64,000 nt of DNA. It comes from Candidatus Microgenomatus auricola (GTDB lineage Bacteria; Patescibacteriota; Patescibacteriia; SBBC01). Location of the stretch: assembly GCA_005239865.1 (NCBI GenBank), contig SBBC01000013.1, positions 36,759 to 100,758 on the forward strand. Reading direction: 5' to 3'. This document shows positions 5,524 to 15,233 of this stretch, piece after piece. Below the pieces are notes generated by a model. That model was not told the DNA's origin. It made no database searches and saw only the letters and a list, made by a program, of their open reading frames with translations. Position numbers and translations under genes: made by a program. Numbering within the stretch: position 1 is the first letter of the stretch; the number at the start of each line of letters is the position of its first letter.

Positions 5524-8247
5524 ATGTCGATTTTGAACAAACTTTTCGGCGATGCAAACGCACGCGTCGTTCGATCATACCAGCCGATGGTCGAGGCCAT
5601 CAACCGACTTGAGCACAACGTTTCCTCGCTCGGCGATGAAAACATCCGCCAACGGCTGCTCGAGCTACGGTCAATTGTTGACGGATCGTCGGCCAAACTC
5701 GATGACGTTCTGCCGGAGGTTTTTGCCATGACACGAGAAGCGTCGCGACGGGCGCTTCAGCTTCGACATTTTGACGTCCAGCTGATTGGCGGAATCGTCT
5801 TGCATCAAGGAAAAATTGCAGAAATGAAAACCGGCGAGGGAAAAACTTTGGTCGCGACCCTGCCCGTCGTTCTCAACGCCTTGACCGGCCAGGGAGTCCA
5901 CATCGTGACCGTCAACGATTACCTGGCCAAACGCGACGCCGGATGGATGGGACCGATCTACGCCCGACTTGGACTGACCTGTGCGGCTATCGTGCATGAG
6001 GCCTCATGGATTTTCGACGAGACGTTCACGAACGAACCGACGACCGATCCGTTGCTTAAGCATCTTCGCCCGATCAGCCGTCGTGAAGCGTACGCCGCTG
6101 ACATTACGTACGGCACGAACAATGAGTTCGGATTCGATTACCTGCGCGACAACATGGTCCCATCACCGGATCACCTCGGGCAGCGCCAACTTCACTACGC
6201 CATCGTTGACGAAGTTGATTCGATCCTGATTGACGAAGCGCGGACGCCGCTCATCATTTCGGCTCCGGTCGAACGTTCGGCCGATGACTATCGCAAAATT
6301 GACCAGCTCGTCAAACGACTGACGGCCGAGCGTGACTTCAAAATTGATGAGAAAATGCGCTCGGTTTTCCTGACCGAGGCTGGCATTACCAGCATGGAAC
6401 GGATGCTCGGTGTGCCGAACATCTATTCGGCCGCGGACAGCGACCTCTTGAACATCATCAATCAAGCGCTCCGCGCGAACTCCAACTTATTCGAGCGCGA
6501 CAAACAGTACGTTGTTCGGAATGGCGAAATCGTGATAGTTGACGAATTCACCGGCCGCTTAATGTTCGGACGAAGATACTCCGACGGTCTCCATCAGGCG
6601 ATTGAGGCCAAGGAAGGAGTCGAGATCAAGCAGGAAAGCCAAACCTTGGCCACGATTACCTTTCAGAATCTCTTTCGGATGTATGAAAAGCTGGCCGGGA
6701 TGACCGGAACGGCGGTGACTGAAGCCGAGGAATTTCACAAAATTTACCAACTCGACGTGGTGGTAATTCCGACCCATCAACCGATGATCCGGGTTGATTT
6801 CGAGGATTCGGTCTACAAAAACGAGCAGGGAAAGTTCACGGCCGTGGTGCGGGAAATCAAAAAGCGTCACGCTCAAGGACAACCTATTCTGGCCGGAACG
6901 ATTTCGATCGCCAAAAACGAACTCCTCTCCGCCCTCCTCCAACGCGAGGGCATTCGCCATGAAGTACTCAACGCGAAAAACCATGAACGGGAGGCCCAGA
7001 TCATCGCCCAGGCCGGTCGGCTAGGAGCGGTCACCATCGCCACGAACATGGCCGGTCGCGGCGTAGACATCATTCTTGGCGGCAACCCACCCAATCCTCA
7101 AGAACATGCGGCCGTGAAAGAACGCGGCGGTCTTCACGTCATTGGGACGGAACGACACGAGGCCCGACGCATTGATTTGCAGCTGCGTGGCCGATCCGGG
7201 CGACAGGGCGATCCGGGCTCCTCGCAATTCTTCGTTTCGATGGAAGACGACTTGATGCGGATCTTCGGCAGTGATCGAATGAAAAATCTCATGGATCGCC
7301 TCGGGATTCCCGATGACATGCCGATTGAGAATAGAATGGTCAGCAAATCGATTGAAGCCGCGCAGAAGAAAGTTGAGGGTCACAACTTCGATATTCGAAA
7401 ACATCTCGTCGAATACGACGACGTCATGAACAAACATCGCGAGGTGATCTACCGGAAGCGAAAGGAAATTCTTCTGGCCGAACCGGTCCGGCTGCGAGAG
7501 ATGGCAAATAAGATGATTGAACAGGAACTCGAAACGCTCGTTGTCTTTCACACCACCGAAGAAAGCCCGGAGCAGTGGAAACTCGATAAAGTCTACGATT
7601 CGGTCAACGCCATTTTCGCTCTGCGATCAGACGAACGGAAACTCCTGCCGGAGCTCGTCAGCCAGTCAGGGAGCGTTCCGCCGGCGTCGTCGTTCCGTCA
7701 CGATCTAACAACGTATCTGGTCGAATTGGCGACCGTCAAATTTTCTACTTTGCTGGCAGCTTCGGCCGAGCCTGATCAGGCCCTCCACATCGTCCGGAGC
7801 ATCATGCTGCGAACAATTGATGTGATGTGGATTGAACATCTGGATTTAATGGAACATTTGCGGGAGGGAATTGGTCTGCGTGGGTACGGACAACGCGATC
7901 CACTCATCGAATACAAGCGCGAGGCGTATCAACTTTTCACCCAACTTCTGAATTCAATTAATGAGCAGACCGCGATTGCGATTTTTAAACTCGAACACGC
8001 TCACACACCGGAACAAACGCCGATGGCGCGTCGGAAATTGATCGAATCAGCACCGGCCAAAACCATGGCTGACGAGCTGGCGCATCCGGTTACCGTGTCC
8101 GGCGTTCCGTCACATGCCCAACCCACCTCGCCGAAAGCGACGTTCCGGAAGGTCGGAAGAAACGACCCGTGTCCATGTGGCTCTGGAAAAAAATTCAAAA
8201 AATGCTACCTAGCCAATGATCCGGGCTGCAAATTACGGACTCAGTAG
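5524..8247 (+). CDS. secA: Preprotein translocase ATPase SecA
   Basis: 907 aa. Has the DEAD motor (Walker A 'MKTGEGKT'), SecA motifs throughout, and the C-terminal zinc-binding tail 'CPCGSGKKFKKC'. Confidence 0.95.
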   Translation: MSILNKLFGDANARVVRSYQPMVEAINRLEHNVSSLGDENIRQRLLELRSIVDGSSAKLDDVLPEVFAMTREASRRALQLRHFDVQLIGGIVLHQGKIAEMKTGEGKTLVATLPVVLNALTGQGVHIVTVNDYLAKRDAGWMGPIYARLGLTCAAIVHEASWIFDETFTNEPTTDPLLKHLRPISRREAYAADITYGTNNEFGFDYLRDNMVPSPDHLGQRQLHYAIVDEVDSILIDEARTPLIISAPVERSADDYRKIDQLVKRLTAERDFKIDEKMRSVFLTEAGITSMERMLGVPNIYSAADSDLLNIINQALRANSNLFERDKQYVVRNGEIVIVDEFTGRLMFGRRYSDGLHQAIEAKEGVEIKQESQTLATITFQNLFRMYEKLAGMTGTAVTEAEEFHKIYQLDVVVIPTHQPMIRVDFEDSVYKNEQGKFTAVVREIKKRHAQGQPILAGTISIAKNELLSALLQREGIRHEVLNAKNHEREAQIIAQAGRLGAVTIATNMAGRGVDIILGGNPPNPQEHAAVKERGGLHVIGTERHEARRIDLQLRGRSGRQGDPGSSQFFVSMEDDLMRIFGSDRMKNLMDRLGIPDDMPIENRMVSKSIEAAQKKVEGHNFDIRKHLVEYDDVMNKHREVIYRKRKEILLAEPVRLREMANKMIEQELETLVVFHTTEESPEQWKLDKVYDSVNAIFALRSDERKLLPELVSQSGSVPPASSFRHDLTTYLVELATVKFSTLLAASAEPDQALHIVRSIMLRTIDVMWIEHLDLMEHLREGIGLRGYGQRDPLIEYKREAYQLFTQLLNSINEQTAIAIFKLEHAHTPEQTPMARRKLIESAPAKTMADELAHPVTVSGVPSHAQPTSPKATFRKVGRNDPCPCGSGKKFKKCYLANDPGCKLRTQ

Positions 8248-8290: not shown

Positions 8291-8449
8291 GGTAATAGTT
8301 CGTTGTTTCCAACATAAAAACAAAGAGCAAAGATGAAGGCCAGAGGTCTTCATCTACACAGATGACGATAAAACGTCTTCTCGGTAGTGGGCCTCTGGCC
8401 ATTCTCCATTTCCATCGGGGAATGCGCTTGTAGAGCCACCGCGTTTTGC

Positions 8450-9853
8450 ATGTCACACTTACGCCATCCGGTCATCCTCGTGTCCATCGTCGTTGGCGCT
8501 TTTTGTCTATTGATGAACCCGGCAGCAGCGAAGGAGGTTGGGGTGATGGCTCCAGAGGTCCGGGTCCTCAACCACAACGGCGCGGTCCAAACAACCTTTC
8601 AAGCCAACCATCAGAATTTTCACGGGGGCGTTCACGTGGCTGTCGGCGACATGGACAGCGACGGCGCAACGGAGCTTGTGACTGGACCGGGCGCCGGGAC
8701 GACACCGACGGTTCGCGTTTTTGAATTAGACGGTACGCTCATCAGGAGTTTTCTGGCTTACGGCGAAGGATTCCGCGGCGGCGTCAATGTGGCGGTCTAT
8801 GATCTTGACAGAGATGGAACCGCGGAGATCATTACCGGTCCCGGCCTCGGCGGCGGCCCCGAGGTTCGCGTCTTTCGGGCGGATGGCACACGCCTCGCCG
8901 CCTTTTTTGCTTTTGATCCAACATTCCGCGGCGGCGTCAATGTCGCCGCCGGCCGATTCGGCACCAACCGACAACCATTGATCGCGGCCGCCTCTGGATA
9001 CGGCGGCGCGCACGTCCGATTGTTTACACCAGCCGGGAAATACGCGGGTGTCAATCTTCGTCCCTTCGGTCAGGTTAGGCATGGCGTGGTGGTGGCCGAA
9101 CTTCCCGTCAACACTCACCGCTCAAAATTGGTGGCCATCCCCGAGCGATCGGCCGCGGCAAAAGTCGAGATCTACAATCTCGATTCGCCAACTAAACCGG
9201 AGCGCAGCTTTCACGGCGTACCGAAACGTTACGAAGCCGGTGCTCGACTCGCGATCAGTGACGTTGATCTCGATGGCGAACATGAGATCGTCGTCGGCAC
9301 CGGTCCCGGCAGCGCACCGCGCGTTCGCATCTTCAACACCGGCGGCAGACTGGAAAAAGACGTGGCGGCTTTTCGAAGCAATTTTCGTGGCGGACTGGCG
9401 GTGGCGGCTGGTCCGGGTATGGTCGTGGTTGGACCAGGCGCGGTTGATCTGGATGGTCGTCCAGACCTCTACAAGTACATCCAGATTGACCTTTCGAGGC
9501 AGACCTTAAAGTATTTTCAAAATGGTCGTCTCCTCAACACCCACCAGGTCTCGACCGGCAAGTGGGATACACCGACACCGATCGGCACGTTCGCCATCAA
9601 GAATCACATCGCGAATGCTTACTCGAAACGCTACGACCTGTATATGGAGTGGTGGATGGCGTTCAGTCCGGACGGGTCGTACGGCATTCACGCACTCCCG
9701 TATTGGAAAACGAAGAATGGCGGAAAACGTTACGAGGGGCAAGGACATCTCGGAACACCGGTGTCGCATGGCTGTATTCGTCAAACTTTGGCTGAAGCGA
9801 AGCGCCTGTACGCCTGGGCAGAAAACGGGACACCCGTGATCGTCAAGAAGTAA
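8450..9853 (+). CDS. Secreted FG-GAP-like beta-propeller protein with a C-terminal L,D-transpeptidase (YkuD) domain
   Basis: Signal-peptide-like N-terminus. About six repeats of 'RGGVNVAVxDxDxDGxxEIxxGPGxGxxPxVRVF'. C-terminal YkuD catalytic motif with 'HGCIR'. The ORF track starts at a GTG at 8387; an ATG at 8450 precedes the signal peptide. Confidence 0.75.
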   Translation: MSHLRHPVILVSIVVGAFCLLMNPAAAKEVGVMAPEVRVLNHNGAVQTTFQANHQNFHGGVHVAVGDMDSDGATELVTGPGAGTTPTVRVFELDGTLIRSFLAYGEGFRGGVNVAVYDLDRDGTAEIITGPGLGGGPEVRVFRADGTRLAAFFAFDPTFRGGVNVAAGRFGTNRQPLIAAASGYGGAHVRLFTPAGKYAGVNLRPFGQVRHGVVVAELPVNTHRSKLVAIPERSAAAKVEIYNLDSPTKPERSFHGVPKRYEAGARLAISDVDLDGEHEIVVGTGPGSAPRVRIFNTGGRLEKDVAAFRSNFRGGLAVAAGPGMVVVGPGAVDLDGRPDLYKYIQIDLSRQTLKYFQNGRLLNTHQVSTGKWDTPTPIGTFAIKNHIANAYSKRYDLYMEWWMAFSPDGSYGIHALPYWKTKNGGKRYEGQGHLGTPVSHGCIRQTLAEAKRLYAWAENGTPVIVKK

Positions 9854-9899: not shown

Positions 9900-11546
9900 A
9901 TGCGAAAAAACCCCTGGTTGAGCTTAGCGCTAATTCTCGTTCTGACCGTCGTCGTCGGTACGATCGATTACCCCCGTGGTCCTGATCTTCGAATCGGTCG
10001 CTATTTTAAAGAACTGAAAGTTCACCTGGGATTGGACCTCCAGGGCGGGACGCGTCTGATTTACGACGCTGATACCTCCACCATCCCGGAGCGAGACCGT
10101 GAAGACGCGCTCCAGGGCGTGCGTGACGTGGTTGAACGTCGCGTCAACGCCTTTGGCGTTTCCGAGCCGGTGGTCCAGACTAACCGTGTCGGTAGCCAGT
10201 GGCGGGTGTCAGTTGAGTTGGCCGGCGTGCGCGATATCAACGAAGCCATTCGCTTGATCGGGGAAACGCCATTTCTCGAATTCCGGGAAGAAACGCCACC
10301 AGTTCAACTTCGCACTGACGAGGAAGCCAAGGCCCGCGCTCAAGACGTCTTGCAGAAGATCGGTGCTCCCAACGCGGATTTTGCCGCTTTGGCAAAGGAA
10401 TTTTCCGACGACCCCGGATCGAAAGATCTAGGCGGCGATTTGGGCTTTGCTCGCCGCGGTCAATTCGTCAACGAATTTGAAGTCGCTCTCTTTGACGAAT
10501 TGCAAGACGGTGAGATTGTCAACCAGCCGATCAAAACGCAATTCGGCTACCACCTCATCAAACGGATTGAATCGCGAGCAATCGACGATGGGAGTGGAAA
10601 TCAGACAGCGGAAGTTCATGGCCAGCACATTCTCGTCGCCACCACCCAGCCACCGCCTGAAGGTAACTTTACCCCGACTAAACTGTCTGGAAAAAACCTC
10701 CGCCATGCAACTGTCCAGTTCGATCCAAATACCGGCGAACCGGAAGTCGGACTCCAATTTGATGACGAGGGAACGCAGCTCTTCGCCGACATCACCAAAC
10801 GGAACGTCGGAAAAAGCGTGGCCATTTACCTCGACGGTAGTCCGATCTCGATCCCCGTTGTCCAGCAGGAAATTACGGCTGGCACGGCCGTCATCACCGG
10901 TAACTTCTCACTGGCGGAAGCGAAGGTTTTAGCTCGGCGTCTCAATGCCGGCGCTTTACCCGTACCGATTATGCTCGTCAATCAGCAGACTGTCGGACCG
11001 AGCTTAGGAAAGGAATCGGTAGCGCGGAGTGTCTTCGCTGGCCTGGTTGGGATCTTGGCGGTGGCTGCCTTTATGGTGGCCTACTATCGTCTTCCCGGAC
11101 TCTTGGCGACCTTCGCCTTGGGACTGTATGCGCTCATCGTGTTGGCAGTTTTCAAGCTCTGGCCAATTACCTTGACGCTAGCTGGGGTGGCTGGATTTAT
11201 TCTTTCAATTGGCATGGCGGTTGACGCGAACGTTCTCATCTTCGAACGCTTTCGTGAAGAACTTCGGAGCGGACGCCCACTCCAGAGTGCGCTGGACGAA
11301 GGATTCCGGCGGGCCTGGCTCTCGATTCGCGATTCAAACGTCTCGACGCTCATCACCGCTCTTATTCTGGCCTGGTTCGGAACAAGTATTATCAAGGGTT
11401 TTGCCATCACGCTAGCCATTGGCATCATCGTCAGCATGTTTACTGCCATTTCCGTCTCGCGGACTCTCTTACGGGTGGTCGGAACGCAGTGGCTCGACCG
11501 TCGCCGAGGATTAATCGGCGCAAACATTCCGCCGGCATCATCCTAA
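9900..11546 (+). CDS. secD: Protein-export membrane protein SecD with a parvulin-type PPIase domain inserted in the periplasmic P1 region
   Basis: SecD start 'LGLDLQGG', P1 head and 6 C-terminal TM segments. Residues ~131-255 carry parvulin motifs ('GGDLGFARRGQFVNEFEVALF', 'GEIVNQPIKTQFGYHLIK'). Confidence 0.85.
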   Translation: MRKNPWLSLALILVLTVVVGTIDYPRGPDLRIGRYFKELKVHLGLDLQGGTRLIYDADTSTIPERDREDALQGVRDVVERRVNAFGVSEPVVQTNRVGSQWRVSVELAGVRDINEAIRLIGETPFLEFREETPPVQLRTDEEAKARAQDVLQKIGAPNADFAALAKEFSDDPGSKDLGGDLGFARRGQFVNEFEVALFDELQDGEIVNQPIKTQFGYHLIKRIESRAIDDGSGNQTAEVHGQHILVATTQPPPEGNFTPTKLSGKNLRHATVQFDPNTGEPEVGLQFDDEGTQLFADITKRNVGKSVAIYLDGSPISIPVVQQEITAGTAVITGNFSLAEAKVLARRLNAGALPVPIMLVNQQTVGPSLGKESVARSVFAGLVGILAVAAFMVAYYRLPGLLATFALGLYALIVLAVFKLWPITLTLAGVAGFILSIGMAVDANVLIFERFREELRSGRPLQSALDEGFRRAWLSIRDSNVSTLITALILAWFGTSIIKGFAITLAIGIIVSMFTAISVSRTLLRVVGTQWLDRRRGLIGANIPPASS

Positions 11547-11550
11547 ACCA

Positions 11551-12444
11551 ATGTATCGGATCATTCAAAAACGCAACTATCTGTTTGCCTTGTCGCTGGC
11601 GCTGTTGGTGCCTGGCATGATCGGCTGGTGGCTGTGGGGACTGCGACTGGGTATCGATTTTACTGGCGGGACGGTCATGACCGTCGTCATTCCCTCGGCC
11701 CCGACACCCGAAGAGGTAAAGACTGCCCTGAGCGCGACCGCATTTGGAAATGCCGTCATCGAACGCGCCGATAAAGATGAATATCTCCTCCGGCTTCCCC
11801 AGCTCTCCAACGAACAGCATGCATCATTAAATGCGACATTGACCAGCGCATTCACCGATGCCACAGAATTGGCATTCGAAACGGTTGGCCCGACGATCGG
11901 ACGTGAATTGAAACAGCGCGCGGTCGTAGCCGTGGTGACCGTCCTGGTTGCAATCATTCTTTACATCACCTGGGCTTTTCGAAAGGTTTCGTCCGGGCCA
12001 GTCCCGTCGTGGGTTTACGGATTGTCGGCTTTTGTCGCACTCCTTCACGATGTCTTCATGGTAGTCGGCGTCTTTGCTATTCTTGGCCATGTCTTTAAGC
12101 TCGAGGTCAATTCCTTGTTCGTCACGGCTCTGCTCACAGTTCTCGGTTTCTCCGTTCACGATACGATTGTGGTCTTTGATCGGATTCGTGAGCGTCTGCG
12201 CTTGAGTGCCGCGCGAACATTCGAGGACGTGGTCAACGAAAGCTTGAATCAAACCCTGGTTCGATCTCTGAATACATCCATCACCACCCTCCTCGTCCTG
12301 GTTGCGTTATTCATCTTCGGAGGAAGCTCAATTCGCTTCTTCGTTTTAGCCCTCATTATCGGGATTACGCTGGGTACGTACTCCTCGATTTTTGTCGCCT
12401 CACCGCTCTTGGTCGTTTACGAGCGGTTGCGGTCGCGACCGTAG
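11551..12444 (+). CDS. secF: Protein-export membrane protein SecF
   Basis: 297 aa. SecF topology and motifs ('GIDFTGGT', 'HDTIVVFDRIRE'). Confidence 0.9.
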   Translation: MYRIIQKRNYLFALSLALLVPGMIGWWLWGLRLGIDFTGGTVMTVVIPSAPTPEEVKTALSATAFGNAVIERADKDEYLLRLPQLSNEQHASLNATLTSAFTDATELAFETVGPTIGRELKQRAVVAVVTVLVAIILYITWAFRKVSSGPVPSWVYGLSAFVALLHDVFMVVGVFAILGHVFKLEVNSLFVTALLTVLGFSVHDTIVVFDRIRERLRLSAARTFEDVVNESLNQTLVRSLNTSITTLLVLVALFIFGGSSIRFFVLALIIGITLGTYSSIFVASPLLVVYERLRSRP

Positions 12445-12604: not shown

Positions 12605-13753
12605 ATGGAATCAAACGAAACGCAAGAAACGCGAAAAGTTTCCAACTCGATCCTTGATCGGGTGCTTTCGAGTCAGCAAGCCGCCGCGATTGAGCATTTT
12701 GTTCCGAGCGAGACGTTTTCTTCATTAGCACGATCGTTATTGGAAAAAGAGCATGATGTGCTCCGCCGGAGATTCGGCCTCCACGGTCAGGATCCGGAAA
12801 CACTCGAGGAAATCGGAAAATTATACGCCGTCACCCGCGAACGTATTCGTCAGATTGAAAATACGGGTGTTTTGAAAATGCTCCACGCGAAACACTACCG
12901 TGAGACGATCACCCCGGTCGAGCGGCTGCTCATGAACGTTTTTAACACCTACGGCGGCATCATCGAGGAGCAACTGTTTTTTCAAGAAACGTTGAGCCAC
13001 GGCGGTAACTCTCCGTCGGAACAACGGGCCCTGACCTTCCTGCTGACGAAACTCTTGACCCATCGTTTTAGCTACCATCCACCGGATCAGGAACTCCGTG
13101 CTAGCTGGAAACTCAAGGCCCAGTCACTGGAACTCGTACGTCAGGTGATCAGCGACCTCATGACCATCGTCCAAGAACGCCGCCAGCCGCTCTTGCGGGC
13201 GGAGCTCCTAGAAGCGTTCCGTGCCCGTCCGCTCTTCCAACGGCATGCTTCATTGTTGAACGACGAGGTTGTCAGTTCATACCTCAATCTGTCCGTCGCC
13301 ATCAGTCATAATCCCTTCGGCGAGTACGGCCTCACGACCTGGGGCACCATCATTCCGAAACGAATGAACGATAAAATCTACCTGGTTCTCAAGAAGGCCG
13401 GTCGGCCGCTCCACTTCACCGAGATTGCCAGACAGATTAATCAGACCGGATTCGACCATCGCCGGGCCTATCCGCCGACCGTACATAACGAATTAATTCT
13501 CAATCCCCAGTACGTCCTCGTCGGACGGGGGATTTACGCCCTGGCTGAATGGGGCTACAAACCCGGCGTCGTGGCCGAGGTCCTGGTCGACATTCTCAAA
13601 CAGGAAAATCGAGCCATGACGCGCGACGAACTGATCGATCGAGTAGCCAAACAACGACTGGTCAAGCGGAACACCATTCTCCTAGCCCTGACGAACAAGC
13701 AACTTTTTCGACGGCTAGCTTCGGGCGCGTATGAACTGGTCAAACAAACCTAA
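12605..13753 (+). CDS. DNA-binding protein with an N-terminal sigma-70 region-4-like HTH and a C-terminal HARE-HTH domain
   Basis: Region 4 signature 'LRRRFGLHGQDPETLEEIGKLYAVTRERIRQIENTGVLKM'. C-terminal 'YLVLKKAGRPLHFTEIARQI...VLVGRGIYALAEWG' resembles HARE-HTH. No sigma region 2 is present. Confidence 0.6.
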   Translation: MESNETQETRKVSNSILDRVLSSQQAAAIEHFVPSETFSSLARSLLEKEHDVLRRRFGLHGQDPETLEEIGKLYAVTRERIRQIENTGVLKMLHAKHYRETITPVERLLMNVFNTYGGIIEEQLFFQETLSHGGNSPSEQRALTFLLTKLLTHRFSYHPPDQELRASWKLKAQSLELVRQVISDLMTIVQERRQPLLRAELLEAFRARPLFQRHASLLNDEVVSSYLNLSVAISHNPFGEYGLTTWGTIIPKRMNDKIYLVLKKAGRPLHFTEIARQINQTGFDHRRAYPPTVHNELILNPQYVLVGRGIYALAEWGYKPGVVAEVLVDILKQENRAMTRDELIDRVAKQRLVKRNTILLALTNKQLFRRLASGAYELVKQT

Positions 13754-13763
13754 ATCTTGAACC

Positions 13764-15233
13764 ATGGAAATCATTCTCGATTTAAGCGGCGTCAGCGGTG
13801 CGCAGGGGATTCCGAACCCCCTGGCGGTCATGTGGACGCTCTTGACCCACGGTGGCTGGATCGCGCTCATTCCCGTTTTTTTGTGGGGTGGATTCGCCAT
13901 TTGGCTCAACTATATCCAGGGGGTCTACGCCATGCGACAAAAGTACGTACTGCTGGCGATCGATGTACCGAAAGAAAATGAATTAAGTCCTAAAGCCGTT
14001 GAGCAAGTTTTTGCGCACCTCTCGGGAATTTACAAGAGTGGGAATAAAAAAGAGCGGTACCTGCGGGGTTACCTCATGCCATCGCTGTCACTCGAACTGG
14101 TTAGTATTGAGGGATATGTCCAGTTTCTCATTCGTACTCCGGCAAAATTCCGCGACCTAGTCGAAGCGACCATCTACGCACAATATCCGAATGCCGAAAT
14201 TTCTGAAGTCGGGGATTATGCCACGGAATTCAAAGCCGAGTTCCCGAACGAGGAGTACGACATCTGGGGGACGGAGCTCAAACTGACGAATAAACAGCAC
14301 TACCCGATTCGGACCTACCCCATGTTCGAGCACTCACTGTCACAGACCTTCTATGATCCAATGGCTAGCATTCTTGAATTTTTTTCGCGGATGCAGCGGG
14401 GTGAACAAGTGTGGTTACAAATTGTTATCACACCGCCGCGGACCGATGATTGGCGCAAGGACGGAATGCGGCTTGTCAAAAAGCTGATTGGCGCACGCGG
14501 GGCGCCGTCTGGCATGCCCGGCTACGTCAACATCCCGTCACAAGTTCTCCGCGGGATCTATGAAACTGCGGCCGCCTCGGTGATTGCTCCAGGCACGTCG
14601 GAAGAACGCCGGAACGAAGAGAATCAACCACCGAGCTTAATGCTCCATCTCCCGCCAAACGAGCGAGCGGTGGTTGAACAGGTTGGCATGAAAATCTCTA
14701 AAATTGGTTGGTTAACGAAAATGCGGCTTATCTACATCGGTAAACACGGCGTCTTCACAAAAGACCGAATTTCGCCGCTCATGGGCGCACTGCGACAATT
14801 CAACACCCTCGACATGAACGGATTCACGCTCGACTCGAAGACCAAAACGAACATTGATTATTTTGTCAATCCACGGGTCAACTGGCGCAAACGTCGCCTG
14901 ATGCTCGGCTACAAGTATCGCAGCAACTGGCGTGGTCGCAATCTGTTCATCATGAACGTTGAAGAACTCGCCACAATTTTCCACTTCCCCGTGACGACGG
15001 TAGTCAAAGCACCGCGAGTTCAAAAGACCGAAGCCAAGCGCGGTGAGCCGCCGGCCGCGCTGCCAGTCGAATCGGAGTTTCAACGCGTCCGCCCGTTTAC
15101 GCCCGGCCAATCGGCCTTTCCGCCGCCAGCCGAGCGACCAGCGGTTGAACTGCCAACGATTGTCACCCCGCCAGAACTCAAACCGACTCCACCCCGCAAG
15201 GGTGGCCATGCCCCCGGTAATCTTCCGGTCTAG
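13764..15233 (+). CDS. Membrane-anchored hypothetical protein (one N-terminal TM segment and a Pro-rich C-terminal tail)
   Basis: TM segment 'GGWIALIPVFLWGGFAIWL'. No family recognised. Pro-rich tail 'PPAERPAVELPTIVTPPELKPTPP'. Sits 10 nt after the HTH gene and 12 nt before the ATPase gene. Confidence 0.45.
   Translation: MEIILDLSGVSGAQGIPNPLAVMWTLLTHGGWIALIPVFLWGGFAIWLNYIQGVYAMRQKYVLLAIDVPKENELSPKAVEQVFAHLSGIYKSGNKKERYLRGYLMPSLSLELVSIEGYVQFLIRTPAKFRDLVEATIYAQYPNAEISEVGDYATEFKAEFPNEEYDIWGTELKLTNKQHYPIRTYPMFEHSLSQTFYDPMASILEFFSRMQRGEQVWLQIVITPPRTDDWRKDGMRLVKKLIGARGAPSGMPGYVNIPSQVLRGIYETAAASVIAPGTSEERRNEENQPPSLMLHLPPNERAVVEQVGMKISKIGWLTKMRLIYIGKHGVFTKDRISPLMGALRQFNTLDMNGFTLDSKTKTNIDYFVNPRVNWRKRRLMLGYKYRSNWRGRNLFIMNVEELATIFHFPVTTVVKAPRVQKTEAKRGEPPAALPVESEFQRVRPFTPGQSAFPPPAERPAVELPTIVTPPELKPTPPRKGGHAPGNLPV

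Follow-up and report, generated by a model that had tools for sequence, protein, structure and literature searches.

Can a peptidyl-prolyl isomerase (PPIase) be built into a protein translocation motor, and can the parvulin fold be circularly permuted when it is? Both questions are raised by the secD gene in a window of 64,000 nucleotides from Candidatus Microgenomatus auricola (contig SBBC01000013.1, positions 36,759 to 100,758 of the forward strand). The original prediction, made from this sequence, had placed a parvulin-type domain, possibly permuted, inside the P1 domain of the SecD protein. The reading that we consider probable is that this is a real SecD in which the linker between the base and the head of P1 is replaced by a complete permuted parvulin, which we infer to serve as a foldase tethered to the P1 arm.

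The parvulin motifs predicted for 10290..10664 (amino acids (aa) 131-255) are present in SecD P1 as GGDLGFARRGQFVNEFEVALF (aa 178-198), GEIVNQPIKTQFGYHLIKRIE (aa 204-224) and EVHGQHILVATTQ (aa 238-250). Two Pfam parvulin families match the insert, Rotamase_3 (PF13616) with an E-value of 5.6e-22 and 78.9 bits (gathering cutoff 22.5) and Rotamase (PF00639) with an E-value of 2.2e-20 and 73.8 bits (gathering cutoff 21.7). By these sequence scores, a parvulin match in SecD is far beyond chance. The proposed alignments to SecD and to PrsA-type parvulins gave the expected matches: in phmmer comparisons, the 548-aa open reading frame (ORF) aligns with SecDF of Thermus thermophilus (structure 3aqp) with an E-value of 4e-83, and the insert aligns with the parvulin structures of SurA and PrsA with E-values from 1e-19 to 1e-11.

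The insert covers aa ~132-256 (10293..10667, forward strand), between the Pfam domain SecD_1st (aa 73-131) and the P1-head (aa 261-355). In the alignment with 3aqp, aa 37-129 correspond to T. thermophilus residues 29-116 and aa 257-526 to residues 155-424, and 127 residues of the query stand in for 38 T. thermophilus residues (117-154) at the base/head junction. The order of the Pfam domains, the match to the NCBIfam model TIGR01129, the 3aqp alignment and the AlphaFold2 (AF2) model agree that the parvulin is inserted at this junction.

Structure prediction, which had been named as a check, yielded a parvulin fold. AF2 on the insert alone (aa 124-262) gave a predicted local distance difference test score (pLDDT) of 90.7 and a predicted template modelling score (pTM) of 0.80, with pLDDT values of 95-98 in the core and block means of 96-97 in the relocated strand discussed below. 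In the full-length model, the block-mean pLDDT is ~84-90 over the parvulin core. The predicted elements of the insert are helices at aa 140-154, 161-168, 174-177 and 191-200 and strands at aa 180-185, 211-213, 216-229 and 235-247; they amount to the four-stranded antiparallel sheet and four helices of the parvulin fold. The active-site-type residues of the family, two histidines and the Asp of a GGDLG motif, are also present.

The order of these elements departs from that of canonical parvulins, which is beta1-alpha1-alpha2-alpha3-beta2-alpha4-beta3-beta4. The core of the insert runs canonically through alpha1, alpha2, alpha3, beta2, alpha4, beta3 and beta4, but beta1 comes last, and because the element order differs we regard the insert as a permuted variant and not as a standard member of the family. 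The Rotamase match (aa 136-223) covers positions 11-96 of a profile of 97, and the Rotamase_3 match (aa 137-224) positions 30-114 of 116. Since the Rotamase match opens at profile position 11, the N-terminal beta1 is missing. We looked at the effect of restoring the canonical order in silico, with aa 234-249 (NQTAEVHGQHILVATT) set ahead of aa 138-226. The rearranged sequence matches from profile position 1, and the score rises from 77.4-78.7 to 82.5 bits for Rotamase and from ~83 to 89.9 bits for Rotamase_3. With the native N-terminal flank FLEFREETPPVQL retained, ~1 bit is gained and the match still begins at profile position 11. Rearrangement of five more homologs (59-61% identity) took all of them to position 1; over the six family members (6/6), Rotamase gains +2.6 to +7.8 bits and Rotamase_3 +6 to +10 bits.

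The rearranged sequence aligns end-to-end with the second parvulin domain of SurA (P2; 1m5y, residues 263-364), the pairings being AEVHGQHILV/TEVHARHILL, GGDLGF/GGDLGW and FGYHLI/FGWHLI. In an alignment of 38 homologs with 58-85% identity, which underlies all statements on residue conservation given here, conservation within the C-terminal half of the insert is highest in the relocated strand (beta1'). In the AF2 model, beta4 and beta1' are adjacent long strands, with beta1' following directly after beta4. The DGSGN loop between them varies in length and sequence among the homologs and bridges the points at which a canonical parvulin would end and begin. Matches to compact single-domain structures align 79-95 residues at 1.3-2.4 Å, about one strand under the full domain, as expected of a sequential aligner given a permuted query. 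SecD proteins without the insert, taken from 23 other genomes, have a linker of ~25-50 aa which is unconserved and has no HIL strand; because the strand is missing there, it is part of the inserted module. Thus the suspicion that the HILV strand lies behind the GYHLIK strand by circular permutation is upheld by profile matching, rearrangement, comparison with SurA P2, conservation and AF2 alike, and a circularly permuted parvulin with beta1 (xxHILV) moved behind beta4 is supported. A position of beta1' between beta4 and beta2 is suggested by the profile, the alignment, the conservation and the predicted elements.

The residues of the active-site type have been kept across the homologs (Table 1). 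The equivalent of Asp180 is the catalytic Cys113 of Pin1, and is Asp in PrsA-type parvulins (bioRxiv 10.1101/2024.09.05.611430). On beta1', Leu245 is invariant and Ile244 is at least 90% conserved; the same lower bound of 90% holds for Glu192, Phe193 and Phe198 each. Among solved structures, SurA P2 is closest to the insert by sequence; alone among the domains of SurA, it has significant PPIase activity (PMC3747590). The conservation pattern favours a catalytically competent parvulin, without proving catalysis.

The carrier of the insert has the features of SecD. TIGR01129, the secD equivalog, matches aa 43-524 over profile positions 1-397 with 404.9 bits (cutoff 244.4), and a Foldseek search with the full-length AF2 model returned the SecDF structures 5xan, 5xap and 3aqp with E-values of 1e-21 to 1e-23. 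According to Pfam, AF2 and Foldseek, the protein consists of a first transmembrane (TM) helix, P1 with base and head, and five more TM helices. As TM1 stands at the N-terminus, the residues up to aa ~365 lie outside the cytoplasm, the topology being that of SecD in 3aqp. The P1-base ends in the strand FLEFRE and aligns to residues 29-116 of T. thermophilus SecDF. Asp442, invariant in the homologs, stands opposite D340, the essential Asp in TM4 of T. thermophilus SecDF (alignment 'mavDanv'/'AAVDGNV'), a residue ('esAspIV') which belongs to the proton pathway (PMC5974789). The gene for the partner subunit, secF, starts 5 nt beyond the stop codon of secD, and the two are separate genes in the window. 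The motor part of SecD looks intact, because the TM4 Asp is conserved and SecF adjoins. Judged from sequence, the 548-aa protein is a genuine SecD of a proton-driven SecDF motor and would stimulate export in a manner dependent on the proton motive force.

To survey SecD homologs for the insert, we searched a set of 5.8 billion proteins. The best 120 clusters have 57-100% identity, and in every one of them (120/120) both PF00639 and PF13616 lie inside SecD. Named clusters, which come from Candidatus Kerfeldbacteria or the Patescibacteria group, bear no other name than 'protein translocase subunit SecD'. In addition, loci were scanned in one genome per GTDB species, and the best 80 SecD loci were classed with profiles built in this analysis. 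One parvulin unit was found at 7 of the 80 loci (Kerfeld-, Buchanan- and Moranbacteria) and two units at the same site at 14 (Uhr-, Magasanik-, Parcu- and Peregrinibacteria), while 59 loci have no unit (Saccharibacteria, Nomura-, Ryan- and Daviesbacteria, Chloroflexota, Cyanobacteria and others). The insert is thus common in certain Patescibacteria lineages, where it is annotated just as 'SecD'. A chimeric ORF or an assembly or annotation artefact was considered and rejected, as the ORF is continuous and the same architecture recurs in the 120 clusters, whose sources are many, and in 21 of the 80 species genomes.

The two-unit proteins (loci L009-L019, L021, L034 and L049; for example L010:2219-4417, L012:2459-4492 and L014:2444-4504) are 670-1150 aa long, and some are fused to SecF. 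Their unit 1 lacks the GYH histidine, which unit 2 retains. A beta1-like strand follows each beta4, entry is through a helix, and the loop after the middle 'SHILV' strand contains a Cys..Cys pair. Either every unit is permuted, or unit 2 is a canonical parvulin nested in unit 1. The single unit of the window was closer to unit 2 in 10 of 10 comparisons. Parvulin-containing single ORFs for SecD and SecF, 1030-1149 aa long, were seen at L017:2189-5278, L034:865-4062 and L049:2471-5917.

The scan of SecD loci also yielded observations on other proteins. In other phyla, unrelated long insertions occupy the base/head linker at L061:2411-4225, L070:2378-3949 and L076:2306-3931; that of L061, from a Thermomicrobia metagenome-assembled genome, is a low-complexity linker of ~150 aa rich in Ser, Thr, Pro and Ala, and those of L070 and L076 are 80-110 aa long. 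The base/head linker of SecD is a general insertion hot spot. At L016:1558-3735, L040:662-2344 and L065:2414-3925, positions ~395-459 of the SecD profile are matched twice with overlap in the TM region, a sign that the membrane domain may contain an internal duplication or an insertion. Seven loci (L003, L010, L015, L018, L020, L021 and L024) are on contigs titled Lysobacteraceae, Candidatus Binatia or 'uncultured Gammaproteobacteria'. Their SecD proteins are Patescibacteria-like, with 50-59% identity to that of the window, and these bins are probably mislabelled or contaminated.

What might a parvulin do at this site? The P1-head's cavity touches the precursor and swings between the membrane-facing Super-F/F forms and the upright I form, drawing the chain from SecYEG (PMC5974789). 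Pfam, 3aqp and AF2 place the insert within P1, outside the cytoplasm and between TM1 and TM2. As it lies outside the membrane at the base/head junction, it is expected to bind unfolded chain handed over by SecDF, and on the bound chain it would catalyse Xaa-Pro isomerization. The polypeptide of the insert enters at alpha1, passes beta2, alpha4, beta3 and beta4, turns in the Gly-rich loop and adds beta1 last. This yields a normal parvulin fold, with both connections to SecD leaving from the beta1/alpha1 corner and not from the usual termini. In Pin1, this corner lies beside the substrate cleft. The permuted attachment at the same corner may therefore point the cleft toward the hinge of SecD.

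We infer that the insert, carried on the arm of SecDF that moves, would act at the translocon as a tethered foldase or holdase. Such a foldase would be present in 1:1 stoichiometry in wall-bound cells with a small genome, and would take the part played elsewhere by the separate lipoprotein PrsA, the membrane-anchored PpiD or the PrsA-like 'dome' of Mycoplasma. No second parvulin gene was found within the 64-kb window. The suggestion that a translocation-coupled foldase possibly replaces PrsA or SurA is plausible. We put forward a bolder version more tentatively, and rather doubt it as a whole: in several Patescibacteria lineages, SecDF might be a joint translocation and folding machine with an active permuted parvulin on the P1 arm, its power strokes feeding the isomerase, PrsA and PpiD being replaced, and the one- and two-unit forms mirroring the division of labour between SurA P1 and P2.

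Alternatives differ in which part of this reading they dispute. The permutation would fall if the parvulin had its usual order with an N-terminal beta1 degenerated to TPPVQLR, HILV then being an ordinary strand of SecD P1. VQLR does sit where the canonical beta1 would stand ahead of alpha1, and AF2 predicts a two-residue strand or bridge at aa 135-136. However, TPPVQLR is variable and gapped in homologs and often swapped for an extra helix, and its flank yields ~1 bit and no profile extension, whereas the HILV strand keeps its His and Leu without exception, gives a full-length Pfam match in 6/6 proteins and pairs with beta1 of SurA P2. HILV as a native SecD strand was rejected, for it is absent from the linker in the 23 insert-less SecD proteins inspected. 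We regard a non-permuted parvulin as extremely improbable. The catalytic role is disputed by the main rival, a non-catalytic binding or regulatory role, in which a real permuted parvulin would passively offer a surface for substrate binding or holdase action, or would tune the swing of the P1-head as a hinge or regulatory module. It would then resemble SurA P1, which modulates the chaperone core, or the parvulin of PpiD, which reportedly has no PPIase activity. Its site at the base/head junction could influence head movement, and unit 1 of the two-unit SecD, being without the GYH histidine, indicates that a non-catalytic parvulin is tolerated there. In SurA, significant PPIase activity is confined to P2 and is dispensable, and P1 modulates the core (PMC3747590). 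On the other hand, His218 and His243 are invariant, Asp180 reaches at least 90% conservation and the hydrophobic residues of the motifs persist over 58-85% identity, an active-site-like pattern. The closest solved relative is the catalytically active SurA P2, and the window unit resembles the histidine-keeping unit 2, not the degenerate unit 1. We consider the non-catalytic role rather unlikely.

Several points weigh against a catalytic foldase working on SecDF substrates. The full-length AF2 model has a pTM of 0.40, and its placement of the domains relative to the P1-head cavity is unreliable. SurA can do without its parvulin domains, which show no chaperone activity of their own (PMC3747590), and the importance of the PpiD parvulin, which also speaks for a non-catalytic role, has been questioned (PMC9643414). 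Conserved histidines alone are no proof of catalysis. The insert is no general need of the lifestyle, because many Patescibacteria (Saccharibacteria, Nomurabacteria and others) do without it. A further alternative cuts the link with SecDF substrates altogether and makes the insert an accessory surface-loop module acting on the cell wall, the S-layer or a host cell, or a near-neutral passenger. These bacteria are probably episymbiotic; the same linker is a hot spot of unrelated insertions (L061, L070 and L076); and the number of units varies from zero to two among close relatives. But in a passenger, the active-site pattern would not stay invariant over more than 120 clusters, and a substrate-related role is more economical, as parvulins elsewhere are repeatedly associated with SecDF or SecYEG. 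The accessory module thus appears improbable to us, and a permuted parvulin tethered to SecDF as a foldase is still the reading that we prefer.

A search with a profile of the insert against 1.84 billion representatives bears on the origin of the permuted order. Among the best 150 matches (P0121-P0270), 137 are of the secreted or lipoprotein type with two to five tandem parvulins; this list is no gauge of the size of the SecD family, because the summed scores of tandem parvulins exceed those of SecD. The abundant tandem-parvulin lipoproteins are possible donors of the segment from alpha1 to beta4 plus beta1. Such a segment may have been excised from a tandem-parvulin array by duplication and truncation: a piece that began with alpha1 in one unit and ended with beta1 in the following unit would have exactly the permuted order observed. 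We take duplication and truncation to be the most likely origin, and related lineages hold two units at the same site.

Table 1. Features of the insert, of its host gene secD and of secF in the window.
Feature	Residues (aa)	Position	Strand	Evidence and remarks
secD, host of the insert	548 plus stop	9900..11546	+	ORF list, TIGR01129, 3aqp match
TM1 helix	5-24	9912..9971	+	hydrophobic stretch PWLSLALILVLTVVVGTIDY; AF2 helix aa 5-21
P1-base before the insert	73-131	10116..10292	+	Pfam SecD_1st (PF21760), E-value 2.2e-15
N-terminal linker TPPVQLR	132-138	10293..10313	+	variable in length and sequence, gapped in homologs; no beta1 equivalent
Parvulin core, alpha1 to beta4	139-229	10314..10586	+	Pfam, AF2; beta2 GDLGFA, beta4 GYHLIKRIE
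Asp180 in GGDLG	180	10437..10439	+	Asp in at least 90% of 38 homologs, a few with Glu; corresponds to GGDLG of SurA P2
His218 on beta4, FGYH motif	218	10551..10553	+	invariant in 38 homologs; corresponds to FGWH of SurA P2
Gly-rich loop DGSGN	230-234	10587..10601	+	non-strand between the AF2 strands aa 216-229 and 235-247
Relocated strand beta1', QTAEVHGQHILVA	235-247	10602..10640	+	carries His243; canonical first strand, here after beta4
His243 on relocated beta1'	243	10626..10628	+	invariant in 38 homologs; corresponds to the HIL histidine of SurA P2
C-terminal linker TTQPPPEGN	248-256	10641..10667	+	variable, gapped; pLDDT falls; leads back into SecD
P1-head	257-355	10668..10964	+	SecDF_P1_head (PF22599), aa 261-355, E-value 7e-30; T. 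thermophilus SecDF from residue 155 on
SecD transmembrane bundle	360-528	10977..11483	+	SecD_SecF_C (PF02355), E-value 4e-16
secF, partner subunit	297	11551..12444	+	PF02355, E-value 1.3e-59; Sec_GG motif

The ORF list places secA upstream of secD at 5524..8247. Between the two genes, 8387..9853 (forward strand) encodes a protein of 488 aa that has FG-GAP repeats and, at its C-terminus, a YkuD L,D-transpeptidase domain, a cell-wall cross-linking enzyme within the sec gene cluster. Directly 3' of secF, 12605..13753 (forward strand) encodes a protein of 382 aa in which a Sigma-70 region 4 motif and a HARE-HTH domain occur without other sigma regions. It is followed at 13764..15233 (forward strand) by a gene for a protein of 489 aa with a Pro-rich C-terminus and no Pfam match.

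In a full-text search of the literature available without subscription, we found no description of a SecD-parvulin fusion, and no paper in which 'parvulin' occurs with 'circular permutation' or 'circularly permuted'. The architecture is latent in precomputed Pfam annotations, yet undescribed as far as can be told. SecD and parvulin are both known kinds of protein, and what is new is their permuted fusion, which is not categorically new. If the bolder reading is true, no natural circular permutation of the parvulin fold would have been described before, as far as our search reached. The finding shows that this fold tolerates a permutation and that nature makes use of it, which is useful to protein engineering. 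Domain-detection models now give a shortened match on the permuted parvulin, and the finding may help in mending them.

The fusion bears on how SecDF passes substrates to folding factors outside the cytoplasm. The contacts that SecDF makes with PpiD, SurA and the Mycoplasma dome are known only from recent reports, and each of them is non-covalent. A conserved natural covalent fusion is independent 'Rosetta-stone' evidence for parvulin foldases at the P1 arm of SecDF, and the SecD of the window offers a compact single-polypeptide system for studying whether prolyl isomerization is coupled to the P1-head cycle. For specialists on Sec and on chaperones, the fusion would be a notable surprise, and it gives them a tractable way into the coupling of translocation and folding. 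The number of units (zero, one or two) is also a lineage marker for envelope biology in the Candidate Phyla Radiation.

Among known systems, the nearest to the host protein are SecDF of T. thermophilus and Deinococcus radiodurans (3AQP, 5XAN, 5XAP, 5YHF) and SecD of Escherichia coli. They are alike in TM1, P1-base, P1-head and the six-helix half-bundle, and have the essential TM4 Asp and an adjacent SecF as does the SecD of the window, whose AF2 model matches both I-form and F-form SecDF structures. The difference lies at the junction, where a segment of 38 residues in T. thermophilus contrasts with a 125-residue module containing a whole parvulin; in solved structures of SecD or SecDF, that place is never occupied by an enzyme domain. 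Compared with SurA P2 and the PrsA/PpiC parvulins (1M5Y, 4G2P, 1ZK6, 2JZV, 6VJ6), in which beta1 opens the domain, the insert has beta1 after beta4. The parvulins of SurA and PrsA sit in a chaperone module formed by N- and C-terminal parts, whereas that of the window sits in a membrane transporter. Pfam and NCBIfam scans of the window SecD revealed no SurA_N or trigger-factor-like domain, and the PrsA and SurA models match only the parvulin (aa 136-242), with scores far below their cutoffs. Because the flanking chaperone module is absent, the window SecD is no chaperone of the PrsA/SurA/PpiD type, although the insert shares with these proteins an extracytoplasmic place next to the Sec exit and may function in a similar way.

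At the E. coli translocon, PpiD-YfgM at SecYEG and SurA in contact with SecDF (PMC9643414; PMC9987972) are separate polypeptides, and no permutation is involved. In Mycoplasma pneumoniae, the PrsA-like lipoproteins Mpn444/436/489 form a dome on SecDF-SecYEG-SecA (bioRxiv 10.1101/2025.04.25.650208; 10.1101/2024.09.05.611430). Crosslinks have been reported for the complex (bioRxiv 10.1101/2024.09.05.611430), and substrate density touches the one active PPIC domain (bioRxiv 10.1101/2025.04.25.650208). In this genome-reduced bacterium, a parvulin PPIase lies directly over the Sec exit and touches SecDF, as would be expected for the SecD of the window. The dome is, however, non-covalent and made of separate lipoproteins with chaperone domains, whereas in the window the parvulin alone is covalently built into SecD. 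With one active parvulin and degenerate ones, the dome parallels the two-unit SecD variants of Patescibacteria. These have the same insertion site as the window SecD, which holds a single unit resembling their unit 2.

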